Positions 381 to 17,448 of a DNA stretch of 18,497 nt are shown one piece after another. The position numbers and the translations under genes were made by a program. The stretch lies in the UHGV virus genome UHGV-0380155; one strand, given 5' to 3'. Each line of letters opens with the position of its first letter. Position 1 is the stretch's first letter. This DNA is from a virus. Below the pieces are notes generated by a model. It saw nothing but the letters and a program-made list of their open reading frames with translations. It ran no database searches and was not told the DNA's origin.

Positions 381-413
381 CACAAAAACAACAGGCACCT
401 CACCGGGTGCCTG
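381..413 (-). terminator. Terminator-like hairpin plus U-tract immediately upstream of the J ribosome-binding site
   Basis: 8-bp stem CAGGCACC/GGTGCCTG with a 6-nt loop; on the minus strand it is followed by UUGUUUUUGUG. Confidence 0.4.
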
Positions 414-451
414 CGTCATGACGGAATAAAATTTCTGAATATCTTCACATT

Positions 452-479
452 TTCACACACTGACTGTGGCGCTTATAAT
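452..479 (+). promoter_or_regulatory. Sigma70-like promoter on the plus strand in the I-J spacer
   Basis: TTCACA (452-457), 16-bp spacer, perfect TATAAT (474-479); AT-rich surroundings. Confidence 0.4.
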
Positions 480-485
480 TTCGCT

Positions 486-583
486 GCGTTAGTGTTTTTT
501 TGCCCGAGTAACCAAAACAACTCCTTAACATTAATCTTCATTTGTCTGTCCCCGCAGCTCCGCGATCACTGCGGGATTTTTTT
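486..583 (+). ncRNA. Candidate small RNA (~95-100 nt), antisense-oriented relative to the tail operon
   Basis: Bounded by the promoter at 452-479 and the intrinsic terminator at 551-583; no convincing ORF with an RBS inside. Confidence 0.3.
551..583 (+). terminator. Rho-independent terminator on the plus strand
   Basis: 7-bp GC-rich stem CCCGCAG/CTGCGGG followed by a run of seven T (577-583). Confidence 0.55.
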
Positions 584-588
584 ATGTT

Positions 589-13900: not shown

Positions 13901-15261
13901 TTTCTCAGTATCCCCCTGAACATCGCTTTCACTGCATCATGCTCTGTTTCACTGATTGCCTTATTACCGTCAGATGCGCCGTCAGGCAGTTGTGCTGAAA
14001 CTGTTTTCCCGGCCGACGCGAACGGGTCCTCACGGGCATCACGACGGGACAGCGCCTCCAGACTGTAGTTCTGCTGCTGAAGATACAGTGCATCACCGCC
14101 GGCAAGGGGCGGCAGGTTCTCACGTTTACGGGCCTCATTGGGCGTGAGAAGCGTATTTTTCACCGATTCACCCAGTGTTTTCATGCGCCGTTCGCTGTCC
14201 ATTCTCAGCAGCGTGGTGACGTCAAACTCCGTGCTCTCGTTTTCCCCCGTTTCCAGCGCCTCATCCAGTAACAGCTCAATGGACTCAATCAGCGTCTGCA
14301 GACACTGGGAATAATACTGCTGCTCCAGCGCCTCCACGTTGTCACTGGAAGGCGGGTGGCCAACGCCAATCTTGTAGGCCGGGACACGGAACACCGAACA
14401 GACAATTTCAGCCGTCATTTTCAGTTGTTCCACCGTCTGCGCATCCACCGGTGAAAACGTCGTGGGGCTGTATTTTGCCCCGTTGCTCAGTATGGCCGTC
14501 TTCCCGGCATTTTCGCCCGTATATCCGCTGTCCCAGTTCCCCTTCAGTTTTTTCGCGTTTTCTTCCGTAATACTGCCGGGGACCTCAATCACGCCTGATG
14601 GTCGCCCGCCATTTCTGAAAAAATACGTCGAATTTGCCTGAATATGATGCCCCTGCATGGCGGCCAGTCCTGCGGCATACACCGGCGGCAGCCCCACAAG
14701 CGGATGAAAAAAACAGTTAAAACGGTCGTGGATCACCTCCCGGGCAGGCACCGTCACCGACTCCGTGATCCCACAGTTCCGGTCCGGCGTGATGCGGTAG
14801 AACACGTCGCCGTCATCCGCCACCAGAGGTTCAACCCGGTTCCAGTCCAGAATACGCAGTTCTTTGATCTGCCCCCGGGGGTTGCGGATTTTCAGCACCA
14901 CCGTATTGCCGTGACGCAATTTGGAATTCAGCCACAGTTCAAAAAACTGGATGCGATTCTGCTGTGCATTAGGACGACGACAGAGACGGGCAGTATCTCC
15001 CTGCCGCTTTTCCCGGCGTATTCCCTGTACATCAGTCTGCATCAGGCGAAGCCGCATTTTGGCAATATCCTGGGATATCAGCGAAATGCATGAAAACACC
15101 GCGTGAAAGGACAAAACGGTTTCCGGATCGGCTTTCACACCCTGCTGCCAGGCACCGGCAAAAGGCTCAGCCACCGCCTGAAACAGGGACCGCCAGCCCA
15201 CTTCTCTTACGTCACGTCCTGATTTCTGGTTTTTTCGGGTTCGCCGCAAAAGGTTCCACAT
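13897..15261 (-). CDS. Portal protein (HK97 family)
   Basis: 454 aa with YFFRNGGRPSGVIEVPG, ...DAQTVEQLKMTAEIVCSVFRVPAYKIG... and C-terminal ...NEARKRENLPPLAGGDALYLQQQNYSLEAL, characteristic of HK97-type portals. Confidence 0.85.
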   Translation of the reverse strand: MWNLLRRTRKNQKSGRDVREVGWRSLFQAVAEPFAGAWQQGVKADPETVLSFHAVFSCISLISQDIAKMRLRLMQTDVQGIRREKRQGDTARLCRRPNAQQNRIQFFELWLNSKLRHGNTVVLKIRNPRGQIKELRILDWNRVEPLVADDGDVFYRITPDRNCGITESVTVPAREVIHDRFNCFFHPLVGLPPVYAAGLAAMQGHHIQANSTYFFRNGGRPSGVIEVPGSITEENAKKLKGNWDSGYTGENAGKTAILSNGAKYSPTTFSPVDAQTVEQLKMTAEIVCSVFRVPAYKIGVGHPPSSDNVEALEQQYYSQCLQTLIESIELLLDEALETGENESTEFDVTTLLRMDSERRMKTLGESVKNTLLTPNEARKRENLPPLAGGDALYLQQQNYSLEALSRRDAREDPFASAGKTVSAQLPDGASDGNKAISETEHDAVKAMFRGILRK

Positions 15262-15428
15262 TCGCCATGCTCCGCATCACGTTTCTTTTTCTGACCTGCC
15301 GGACGTCGCGCTGTGATGTACTCCGCCTTCCCCAGGCGAACCAGCACCTCCGCACACGGCTGTGCCACATCACGGATATCCCCGGCCCGGGCATCATGCG
15401 TGCCCTGCAGATACTGGATTTTTGCCAT
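15207..15428 (-). CDS. Small hypothetical ORF between the capsid and portal genes
   Basis: 73-aa ATG-initiated ORF with no strong SD; its 3' end overlaps the portal start. It may only be an upstream-frame artefact. Confidence 0.2.
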   Translation of the reverse strand: MAKIQYLQGTHDARAGDIRDVAQPCAEVLVRLGKAEYITARRPAGQKKKRDAEHGECGTFCGEPEKTRNQDVT

Positions 15429-15472
15429 CTGTTACTGCGGGAAGCTCGCGCCTCCCGCCCTCCTCATCAGAC

Positions 15473-17410
15473 TCAGCCACCGGACGCAGTTCCGTAGTTC
15501 ACACCGGTGATCACCGCCACTGCCGCGGTACGGCGACGACGCCAGTTGATCCAGCGCTCCGCACGGATGGCCACGCTGCCGGTCTGAAACATGGAGACCA
15601 GTTCCACCGGTGACGGTGTGCTGCTGTCGCCGCCCGGCTCAGACTGCATTTCCAGTGACGCTTCACGGGACATATCCACTGCCACACCGCCGTCATCCGC
15701 CAGATAAATATCCGGCGCATTCACCAGTACCAGCTGGTCACCCACATACTGGGAGACAATCACCGGCAGCCCCTGGAAGGTCCCGCCCAGCAGGGTCATG
15801 TCCGGATATTCCTTCTGCCCCAGCGCATTTTTACGCATGGACAGCGCCAGGGCATTCGTGCTGGACATCAGCCAGACCGCACCGGTGGGCTGCAGATTTG
15901 CCGTCACAAACTGGCCAAACGCGGCCTCGGCATCCGCATCCGGGTTACCGGTTGATGCCGTGCCCTTCACATCATGGGTGATGGACGCCGGGGAGACATC
16001 CGCCACCGCCGCTTTTTTCGGGTCCACAAAGTCTGTGTCCAGACGCGCCACCACCGCTTCTGCCAGCGCATTACGGACCAGCGCATCAGCTGCCGGACTG
16101 GAAAAACGGATCAGCTCTTCCGTCAGTACCGCAATGGCCGACACCTTCGCATGACTGAAGGTGATGGATTCAAAATCAAACTTCGTCAGGGGTCTGGCCT
16201 TACCCTCCCCCACCCAGCCGGCAGCACCACCGGACACCTGGGCATGCACGCGGATATTGAACGGCACCTGACGAAGTGCAGGGATCCCGCCCTGACCAAA
16301 TCGCCCGATAATGGTCTGCGGACGCAGGTAATCAATAAAGTCCTGCGCATATTCCTGGTATTCAGACAGGCTGCCTGCCCACTGCGGGTCCGTGGTGGTC
16401 CCTGCCCCCACCGCCGATTTCAGGACATGATGCAGACGACTGTCATCCGGATACTGACGACGGGCCACTTCCAGGGCTTCAGATCGGACGCCTTTAGCCG
16501 CAGCCAGCGATTTGGCAAAGCGGGCGAAGCCAATCCCCTTATCCAGTTTCTGCTCCACACGGATCACCGGCGCAGAAGCCACCGCGGCCACATTCCCGTT
16601 ACCGGCCTGTTTCACCGGCTGCGCCGTGGCGGCCTTACCGGCTTCCAGTTCACGCAGGCGCTTCAGGTGCGCATCCACCTGACGGATTTCCGCTGCGGTG
16701 TTGTCGTAATGCTCTTCCTCCTCCACATCCAGCGTGCGCCCTTCCTCTGCGGCTTTGGTCATGACCTCCTCAAGGGAGGCTGCCAGCGCTGCACGCTTGT
16801 TTTCAAAACTTTTAATCTGTTCGCCAATATTCATTATGGTCTTTTCCTTATGAAAAACGGTTGTTGACTGTGCCGCAGCGCCGGCAGAAGATGCGATTTT
16901 CACCACCGGTTTCCGGTTGCCGGACGCGGCAGAAAACGGGCGGTCGTAAGATTTAATGGCCCGGATGGTGCATTCCGCATTCGCGGGCACGGTGACGGCA
17001 GACACCTCCATCAGCTCCCAGCGCAGAAAATGCAGTCCGCCTCCGTCCAGAAAGGTGTATTCATGGGGACGGAAGCCCACGGACAGCCCCCTGACCAGCC
17101 CGGTCTTAATGGCCGCCCAGACCTCATCCAGCCGGGCAGCCAGTTGCGACGGCATATCCGGTACGGGCTTCACCAGTGTTGCCGTGATTTCCAGCCCTTC
17201 GCTGACCCGGCGCACCGTACACTGCCCCACCGGGCGGGAATGGTCATGCTGCCAGAGAAACGGGATCGCACTGCCAAACTCCGCGCCCTCCGGCTCCAGG
17301 ATGTCACCATCCCGATCCGGAGAAGGCGTTGACGCAATCCCGGTGATCACCCGTTCATCCTCACTGAAGGATTTCACCGTCAGCAGGGAACAGGCCCGTT
17401 TAAGAGTCAC
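15473..17410 (-). CDS. Prohead protease (HK97/S78 family) fused in frame to an HK97-fold major capsid protein
   Basis: 645 aa. N-terminal ~180 aa carry ...ITGIASTPSPDRDGDI...PFLWQHD...GLSVGF...MEVSAVTVPAN... (S78 protease). From MNIGEQIKSFENKRAALAASLEEV... onward it looks like a capsid delta domain plus HK97-like capsid body. GTG start with AGGAGG 5 nt upstream. Confidence 0.85.
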   Translation of the reverse strand: MTLKRACSLLTVKSFSEDERVITGIASTPSPDRDGDILEPEGAEFGSAIPFLWQHDHSRPVGQCTVRRVSEGLEITATLVKPVPDMPSQLAARLDEVWAAIKTGLVRGLSVGFRPHEYTFLDGGGLHFLRWELMEVSAVTVPANAECTIRAIKSYDRPFSAASGNRKPVVKIASSAGAAAQSTTVFHKEKTIMNIGEQIKSFENKRAALAASLEEVMTKAAEEGRTLDVEEEEHYDNTAAEIRQVDAHLKRLRELEAGKAATAQPVKQAGNGNVAAVASAPVIRVEQKLDKGIGFARFAKSLAAAKGVRSEALEVARRQYPDDSRLHHVLKSAVGAGTTTDPQWAGSLSEYQEYAQDFIDYLRPQTIIGRFGQGGIPALRQVPFNIRVHAQVSGGAAGWVGEGKARPLTKFDFESITFSHAKVSAIAVLTEELIRFSSPAADALVRNALAEAVVARLDTDFVDPKKAAVADVSPASITHDVKGTASTGNPDADAEAAFGQFVTANLQPTGAVWLMSSTNALALSMRKNALGQKEYPDMTLLGGTFQGLPVIVSQYVGDQLVLVNAPDIYLADDGGVAVDMSREASLEMQSEPGGDSSTPSPVELVSMFQTGSVAIRAERWINWRRRRTAAVAVITGVNYGTASGG

Positions 17411-17422
17411 ATCAGCCTCCTG

Positions 17423-17448
17423 AAAATAAAAAAACCGCCGGAGCGGTT
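17423..17448 (-). terminator. Terminator-like hairpin plus U-tract upstream of the protease-capsid gene
   Basis: Stem AACCGC/GCGGTT with loop UCCG, then U8AUUUUCAGGAGG on the minus strand. Confidence 0.35.

Follow-up and report, generated by a model that had tools for sequence, protein, structure and literature searches.

The 18,497-nt stretch of the virus genome UHGV-0380155 analysed here (the window) corresponds to the section of a lambdoid Escherichia coli prophage late operon that serves virion assembly, with the genes on the minus strand, and it carries seven hairpins followed by U-tracts (hairpins a to g, Table 1). It is fairly probable that these units are Rho-independent terminators, placed in the sense orientation within one long late operon, which would stop unmodified RNA polymerase (RNAP) and be overridden by the antitermination protein Q. 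A preliminary description of the same sequence had listed the seven units and had proposed that they are either antitermination-sensitive terminators that silence late genes in the lysogen or stabilizers of the 3′ ends of processed mRNAs. In a megablast comparison 533 phage records were matched by the window, the best being those of long-tailed Shiga toxin (Stx)-converting phages (about 95% identity over about 80%), and the order of the genes is the same in annotated relatives. Among complete E. coli genomes, the highest match reached 98.6% identity over 85% of the window.

All seven units could be confirmed. The hairpins are all (7/7) on the minus strand, in the sense orientation of the late operon, and all lie in intergenic gaps: TerL|capsid (a), U|V (b), T|H (c), M|L (d), L|K (e and f), and I|J (g), where the bar separates the neighboring genes. 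Rho-independent terminators were taken to have a GC-rich stem of at least 5 bp, a loop of 3-8 nt, and a U-tract no more than 2 nt from the stem. The stems have 5-9 bp, including 4-7 G-C pairs, and the loops have 3-6 nt; in a to f a tract of six to eight U residues is flush with the stem, and g has an interrupted, weaker tract (UUGUUUUUG). Calculation of the fold energies, which the preliminary description had named as a check, gave values between -8.5 kcal/mol (b) and -17.7 kcal/mol (g), with z scores against dinucleotide shuffles of -3.4 to -5.3, except for b (-1.3). This canonical anatomy and the good stability of all seven argue for terminators, as does the retention of the U-tract, which a hairpin serving only for stability would not need; the hairpin that follows the capsid gene (see below) has none. 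The layout, which had been called identical, is indeed uniform in a to f, where 17-22 nt separate the end of the stem from the next start codon, while g stands at 43 nt. The uniformity is largely forced, because a compact genome leaves only about as much room as a U-tract, a short spacer, a Shine-Dalgarno (SD) sequence, and the SD spacer take up (17-22 nt). The regions downstream of a and b match at 20 of 25 positions, UUUUUUAUU(U/A)UCAGGAGGC, and contain the consensus SD (AGGAGG); the SDs after c and d are weak. Two start codons of the preliminary description had to be corrected. K does not start at 1943 but at the ATG at 1904, after hairpin f, and the SD and ATG that follow hairpin e open only a doubtful 85-amino acid open reading frame (ORF), antisense to a ClpP-like gene.

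The number of such structures exceeds what chance would produce. Every hairpin on both strands was given a terminator score that combines the stem energy per length with a weighted U-tract score, d = 96.59(-ΔG/L) + 18.16 nT - 116.87, and the threshold was set at d ≥ 10. The constants are those ascribed to d'Aubenton-Carafa (1990) and Lesnik (2001), and d is used as a ranking statistic only; the comparison with shuffles is independent of them because the shuffles were scored alike. Eight sites on the sense strand reached the threshold, the seven hairpins and one inside gene M, compared with one on the antisense strand. In 60 dinucleotide shuffles the mean was 0.03 sites when the sequence was shuffled globally and 0 when it was shuffled in 500-nt blocks. 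This strand bias and this excess are a further argument for termination. A loose consensus scan was less striking, with 27 matches against 17.7 +/- 5.0 in shuffles. The eighth site, at 6397-6416 (minus strand), lies in the coding sequence of the tail gene M, has a ΔG of -13 kcal/mol, is followed by UUUUUG, and is found in most close relatives. It was rejected as a member of the set and is considered incidental coding sequence, since it is broken without compensation in relatives with 80% identity.

The junctions were compared in 80 IMG/VR loci around the tail-tube gene by anchored extraction, and this comparison divided the hairpins in two kinds that the preliminary description had treated as one class. 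Four of them (a, b, c, and g) are conserved and stand alone. Hairpin a is present in 40/40 relatives, with variation only in the loop and in G-U pairs, b in 78/78, and c, as two alleles, in all 73. Hairpin g or an alternative terminator-like hairpin was found in 26 of 31 relatives, and the other five have inserts of 849-904 nt, the J-proximal end of which was not inspected. In I|J spacer variants of 343 nt, a non-homologous hairpin, AACCCCGGUAUC-UGCU-GAUACCGGGGUU followed by UCUCUUU, replaces g. The two alleles of c, AAAACCUGC-UGUG-GCAGGUUUU and GAACCGC-UGAG-GCGGUUU, are two double compensatory changes apart. MAFFT put the c alleles at the T|H junction out of structural register, and the equal-length hairpin cores were re-aligned for the pair counts. 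In the re-aligned cores of c and a, 98% of the cells are paired, compared with 25-66% when the partner columns are slid. In g one pair changes from C-G to U-A, with a U-G intermediate, and 100% of the cells are paired. One of the c alleles is nearly identical to a (GAACCGCUNNGGCGGUUUUUUUA). The sequence of a (GAACCGCUCCGGCGGUUUUUUUA) and that of the commoner c allele in relatives, at the T|H junction of loci L002-L081 (GAACCGCUGAGGCGGUUUUUUUA), differ only in the loop.

Hairpins of unrelated sequence occupy the same junctions in more distant phages. At U|V, 689R5, mEpX1, and the Klebsiella phage Kp4886-3, whose V proteins share 61-72% amino acid identity with that of the window, keep a GC-rich hairpin, a U-tract, and an SD, with different stems. 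At T|H, 689R5 has a hairpin, and mEpX1 has a moron of the HK97 gp15 type with its terminator where c sits in the window. Unrelated hairpins with U-rich tracts are found at the TerL|capsid junction of Pseudomonas phage PAJU2 and Moraxella phage Mcat2 (capsid fusions 37-48% identical), and no such hairpin was found at this junction in SOVA965 and FUB47a. Lambda itself has GCCGC-CUGU-GCGGC and U7 at D|E (6101-6114), directly upstream of the major capsid gene E, and a terminator-like hairpin with a U-tract at I|J (15466-15479), the analogue of g; its lom gene is followed by GCCCGCCGGAACCGGTGGGC and U6. No discussion of the lambda D|E and I|J hairpins was found in the papers that could be searched. 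These non-homologous hairpins with U-tracts, in distant phages and in lambda, argue for terminators, and unlike sequences at the same junctions are stronger support than the covariation described above.

The other three hairpins (d, e, and f) track inserted gene cassettes. In 47 of 58 relatives M and L abut without hairpin d, and 11 of the 58 have a porin insert of 1537-1586 nt. Hairpin d closes every one of these inserts (11/11), with a constant stem and a loop that varies (ATT, GGTT, or GTCT). At L|K, 35 of 45 relatives have a gap of 10-35 nt without a hairpin and 10 have an insert of 1665-2327 nt. This insert starts with hairpin e in 10/10 cases, as its first 33 nt and whatever follows, and in all carriers it closes with hairpin f, followed by a new SD and new sequence for the first 19 nt of K; the half of the insert nearer to L varies between relatives. 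The GC content is 0.43-0.44 over 2000-4000 and 4500-6500, which cover both inserts, and 0.55-0.60 elsewhere in the window. A moron is an inserted unit with its own promoter and terminator (PMC3594210), and the inserts that end in d and f are present or absent in otherwise syntenic relatives, diverge in GC content, and have their own terminator. The "ant moron" has been described as a highly variable region (PMC2629481, PMC8022706). Because d and f are present only with inserts, and at the insert ends, they appear to be ordinary moron terminators, and e would be the terminator that bounds the ant cassette upstream. Compared in register between the stem and the ATG, e and f are identical at 32 of 41 positions (78%), the highest value of all hairpin pairs, so they can be considered imperfect direct repeats that flank the ant cassette. 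They may provide short stretches of homology through which the cassette is exchanged or lost.

From these features we infer that the hairpins terminate transcription and that Q reads through them, and the following course of events can be proposed. In the lysogen, unmodified RNAP would come from the moron promoters (porin and ant), from spurious promoters, or from leakage past tR′. It would pause on the U-tract, the hairpin would form in the RNA exit channel, and the transcript would be released just upstream of the next ribosome-binding site. Hairpins d and f would end the porin and the arc-ant units and keep lysogen-active moron promoters out of L and K-I-J, and e would shield the ant cassette from transcription that arrives through L. 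Hairpins a, b, c, and g would be stand-alone terminators at the junctions between blocks of translationally coupled structural genes. The outcome would be silent structural genes. After induction, RNAP loaded with Q at pR′ would be unable to form terminator hairpins and would read through all of them. Lambdoid Q proteins build a nozzle onto the RNA exit channel, so that terminator hairpins cannot form (PMC9388147). The late operon of Stx phages requires Q to read through tR′, which in lysogens stops the constitutive transcript from pR′, and Term-seq data for E. coli O157 Sakai have been deposited (GEO GSE143631) (PMC7547250). Stopping polymerase that lacks Q is one of the two possibilities offered for the terminators of phage L (PMC8022706). 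Once read through, the hairpins would probably be 3′ barriers for processed mRNA segments, and the U-rich tract beside a strong SD may aid ribosome loading on the capsid and tail-tube genes.

The genome deposited as that of the complete Stx phage BP-4795 carries a, b, c, and g, together with terminators after J and lom, and has no d, e, or f. If BP-4795 is a productive, virion-making phage, as we take it to be, late transcription must read through the core hairpins, which fits antitermination-sensitive terminators. The proposal of such terminators in the preliminary description thus stood in part. The sequence features, the strand specificity, the excess over chance, the conservation with some compensatory changes, and BP-4795 agree with it, but d, e, and f are moron boundaries, absent from most relatives, and not regulators of L or K as such.

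Several points weigh against Q-sensitive termination. The window begins inside a lysozyme-TerL fusion and contains no Q, Q-binding element (QBE), or pR′, and the prophage copy is defective because TerL is truncated. Hairpin b is weak, with 5 bp, and 22 of 200 shuffles fold equally well; hairpin g has an interrupted U-tract and a d of only 12. The covariation in c and g comes from very few independent events and is modest evidence. A terminating ribosome cut the efficiency of tR2 to less than 10% at stop-codon distances such as those of c and e, 8-13 nt (PMC4824070), so these two may act mainly or only on untranslated transcripts; a and b, 24 and 28 nt past the stop codon, are far enough for near-maximal termination. 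Hairpins a and b also lie just upstream of the genes for the two most abundant virion proteins, where residual termination in the lytic cycle would be costly. Finally, the part played by terminators of this kind within operons is described as unknown (PMC8022706).

A possible alternative, held tentatively, is that the hairpins act after transcription. Endonucleolytic cleavage in the AU- or U-rich tract would be followed by a block of 3′-5′ exonucleases at the hairpin, each gene block would have its own stability, and the U-tract beside the SD would be an enhancer or standby site of the S1 type for genes that start translation afresh. The hairpins stand exactly at the borders of overlapping, translationally coupled gene blocks, a and b, with their near-identical downstream contexts and consensus SDs, stand ahead of the capsid and tail-tube genes, and the U-rich and SD context at U|V is kept in 689R5, mEpX1, and Kp4886-3. 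AU-rich leaders are reported to enhance translation, and Sampson et al. (1988) reportedly found that lambda late-gene output is set mainly by translation initiation. Hairpins without a U-tract after the capsid gene, here and in several other phages, also suit this alternative. A stabilizer, however, has no need of six to eight uninterrupted U residues flush on the stem, which all seven have or nearly have; d, e, and f travel with morons as transcription-unit ends; and H, L, and J, which follow c, d, and g, encode low-copy proteins, with weak SDs after c and d. This action is plausible, and it is compatible with termination of unmodified polymerase and not exclusive of it.

A related idea, which we regard as rather doubtful, joins the two functions. 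The stand-alone units would be selected, dual-purpose modules of a terminator and a ribosome-binding site that stop unmodified polymerase and later cap the upstream mRNA, with the U-tract as a ribosome-recruiting enhancer for the next block; they might also be portable and serve as short homology patches for moron exchange. Portability is suggested by the near-identical copies at different junctions (a and the c allele) and by the e/f repeats that flank variable cargo. If true, this idea would explain why units lie directly upstream of the major capsid gene in head modules as unrelated as those of this lineage, PAJU2, Mcat2, and lambda (D|E), and upstream of the tail-tube gene.

It is improbable that the hairpins are neutral relics of mosaic evolution, that is, leftovers of moron insertions and deletions or of module junctions without a selected function, tolerated since Q-modified polymerase ignores them. 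T|H, M|L, L|K, and I|J are hot spots of insertion (the gp15 moron in mEpX1, the porin, the ant cassette, and the 343-904-nt I|J variants), the direct repeats e and f flank a cassette, and the likeness of a c allele to a suggests copying between sites. The presence of a, b, and c in all 40-78 relatives, with pairing kept by compensatory changes, and the independent hairpins, non-homologous in sequence, that distant phages and lambda have at the same junctions are contrary to this explanation, and the incidental hairpin of gene M, by contrast, is lost without compensation. Chance matches in GC-rich DNA with occasional T runs, to which the modest result of the loose scan and the stability of b, no greater than that of shuffles of its own sequence, would leave some room, are effectively refuted by the combined score and by the intergenic position and conservation of all seven.

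Table 1. Hairpins and other features of the window. Stem coordinates are followed by those of the stem with its U-tract; ΔG in kcal/mol.
Feature	Position	Strand	Sequence or content	Setting or basis	ΔG	z	d
Hairpin a	17432-17449; 17425..17449	minus	GAACCGC-TCCG-GCGGTTT + U7	24 nt past TerL stop (17474), ahead of protease-capsid GTG (17410)	-10.9	-4.3	33.5
Hairpin b	11329-11343; 11322..11343	minus	CCCGC-CGCGT-GCGGG + U6	28 nt past U-like stop (11372), ahead of tail tube ATG (11306)	-8.5	-1.3	20.4
Accessory weak hairpin and U-rich run	11360..11385	minus		In tandem with b, overlaps U-like stop codon	-6.3	-2.6	below 10
Hairpin c	9874-9895; 9866..9895 (U8)	minus	AAAACCTGC-TGTG-GCAGGTTTT + U4 more	Only 9-13 nt past T stop (9905), ahead of H ATG (9853); A4 run upstream, potentially bidirectional	-12.5	-3.6	19.7
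Hairpin d	4760-4776; 4753..4776	minus	GGGGCGC-ATT-GCGCCCC + U6	20 nt ahead of L ATG (4739)	-15.1		43.8
Hairpin e	4015-4032; 4008..4032 (U6)	minus	GCCCACC-GTCA-GGTGGGT + U5	8 nt past L stop (4041)	-13.4	-3.9	30.9
Hairpin f	1922-1941; 1915..1941 (U6)	minus	ACCCAGCC-TCG-GCTGGGTT + U4	17 nt ahead of K ATG (1904)	-16.0	-5.3	35.8
Hairpin g	391-414; 384..414	minus	GCAGGCACC-CGGTGA-GGTGCCTGT + UGUUUUUG	J-proximal end of the conserved 241-nt non-coding I|J spacer, 43 nt ahead of J ATG (347)	-17.7	-3.8	12.0
Stable hairpin without U-tract	15437..15458	minus		Right after capsid stop (15473); ΔG with flanks	about -21.6	-3.3	
TerL nuclease-domain fragment	ends 17474	minus		Pfam
Prohead-protease/HK97-capsid fusion	17410-15473	minus	GTG start	Pfam
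Portal	15261-13897	minus		Pfam
Connector, head-completion, and tail-completion genes	between portal and major tail tube gene	minus		Pfam
Tail-completion (U-like) gene	stop 11372	minus
Major tail tube protein (V)	11306-10590	minus	ATG 11306	Pfam
G/T tail chaperones	T stop 9905	minus		Pfam
Tape-measure gene H	9853-6611	minus		Annotation of relatives, without Pfam scan
M, then porin, L, and Arc/ClpP/Arc/antirepressor block	between H and K		Order along the minus strand of the window
Porin moron	4740..6276	minus	OmpC/NmpC-like porin gene 6074-4938, 43% GC	Porin_1, E 2.8e-142
immI-like ant moron	1905..4040		Cassette between L and K
Arc/Mnt-like gene and ClpP-like gene	3158-3984	plus	Arc domain in 96-aa and 46-aa proteins of cassette	Pfam
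Promoter-like site	3150-3123		TTGACT-16-TAGTAT, 33 nt upstream of Arc-like gene	Promoter scan
Arc-like gene	3090-2950	minus		Pfam
sar antisense RNA, P22 homologue	2890-2955	plus		Rfam RF00262, 67.6 bits (gathering score 43)
KilA-N/P22AR antirepressor (ant)	2888-1960	minus	233-aa ORF	KilA-N + P22_AR_C
K	ATG 1904	minus	JAB + NlpC/P60 domains	Pfam
I, then start of J	J ATG 347	minus

Two of the intergenic regions contain further elements. The stable hairpin at 15437-15458 varies in its stem among relatives with the pairing kept, and a hairpin follows the capsid gene in 7/7 other phages inspected, in several of them without a U-tract. It is a candidate for a different type of element, a 3′ stabilizer rather than a terminator. 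The capsid-portal gap (15262-15472, minus strand) also has a small conserved ORF (MAKIQYLQG..., about 73 amino acids in relatives), which overlaps the portal start and is annotated as a hypothetical protein in some records. The 241-nt I|J spacer (window 415-588, both strands) is a conserved, mosaic, non-coding element. On its plus strand there is a near-consensus promoter, TTCACA-16-TATAAT (452-479), both hexamers of which are kept in three diverged variants, and about 100 nt downstream a terminator, CCCGCAG-loop-CUGCGGG followed by A and U7 (559-582), the stem being conserved and the loop variable. The two elements predict an unannotated RNA of about 100 nt, antisense towards gene I. Comparison of the spacer with Rfam gave only sub-threshold chance matches and no family. 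The 66-nt small RNA HnrS/EcOnc10-12 is located "within the late genes" of Sakai prophages, and the paper gives no sequence or coordinates (PMC13502914). The possibility that a hairpin or spacer of the window encodes HnrS was rejected, as no intergenic candidate has 7-9-mer complementarity to the hha ribosome-binding region and the duplex energies with hha are no better than those of shuffles.

The cassettes have some features of their own. A promoter scan upstream of the porin gene found no site that passed. The 3′ untranslated region (UTR) of the porin gene has 198 nt (4740-4937), with a first hairpin at 4884-4915 (ΔG about -25 kcal/mol; weak terminator score, on the plus strand only) and then hairpin d. 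Hairpin d and the terminator after nmpC of DLP12 are alike (GGGGCG...CGCCCC). Homology of this UTR to that of DLP12 nmpC and to IpeX was considered and set aside, since only the coding region aligns (69%) and homology of the UTRs could not be demonstrated; an IpeX-like RNA from the 3′ UTR of the porin moron is conceivable. The ant frame is broken by an in-frame TAG at 2187-2189 (minus strand) and runs 75 codons beyond it, to a TAA at 1960, with the rest of the P22AR C-terminal domain.

At the upstream end of the window (17474-18497, minus strand), a phage lysozyme frame continues, near 18020, into the nuclease region that forms the C-terminal part of TerL. This prophage copy lacks Rz, the small terminase subunit, and the N-terminal two thirds of TerL; a close relative has TerL and the small subunit intact. 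The matches to several E. coli genomes likewise stop at about 18025. The portal region (12839-15261, minus strand) consists of two ORFs of 454 and 353 amino acids joined by ATGA, and in other records it is annotated as a single frameshifted portal gene or split differently. The second ORF (353 amino acids) had no convincing Pfam match.

Lambdoid prophages carry many virulence and fitness genes as late-operon morons, and terminators let these genes be expressed in the lysogen without switching on the costly structural genes. The window is a clean, well-conserved example in which cassettes bring their own boundary terminators and stand-alone terminators are kept at fixed junctions, lambda included. 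Its practical value lies mostly in annotation and in phage and prophage engineering, and the current understanding is unchanged.

Similar arrangements have been described in several systems. The morons of HK97 (gene 15, flanked by the tail chaperone and tape-measure genes) and lambda (lom) are, like the inserts that end in d and f, cassettes of lower GC content that end in a sense-strand terminator before the next structural gene. The morons of the window differ in their cargo, an OmpC-like porin and an immI-like module. In addition, a second terminator (e) marks the upstream end of the L|K cassette, which replaces the SD and first 19 nt of K, and no cargo gene accompanies a, b, c, and g. The immI/ant moron of P22 (mnt, arc, sar, and ant, upstream of the tailspike gene) shares with the L|K cassette the sar RNA, Arc-like repressors, an antirepressor with KilA-N and P22AR-C domains, the location within the late operon, and a terminator that precedes the next tail gene. 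The cassette of the window, however, lies between L and K of a lambda-type long tail and not before a tailspike gene, its ant has an in-frame TAG, the mnt side has a ClpP-like gene, and its left half varies among relatives. According to Berget, Poteete and Sauer (1983), expression of P22 gene 9 is reportedly controlled by a terminator that late antitermination overrides.

Predicted Rho-independent terminators inside a late operon with one promoter are also found in phage L/P22 and in SPP1, whose late gene clusters are delimited by predicted terminators (PMC6316719). The set described here is denser, with seven in 18.5 kb, and two of them directly precede, instead of following, the major capsid and tail-tube genes. 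The tR′/Q system likewise has an intrinsic terminator overridden by Q-loaded RNAP. Unlike tR′, which is a single regulatory terminator beside pR′, the hairpins of the window lie kilobases downstream, where they would be read through. In Tn916 a terminator prevents premature expression from outside transcription and dedicated antitermination overrides internal terminators (PMC11658703); the type of element, the host, and the antitermination machinery are different, and the likeness is an analogy only. The kind of feature described here is thus already known in P22-like phages, in SPP1, and in the morons of HK97 and lambda.

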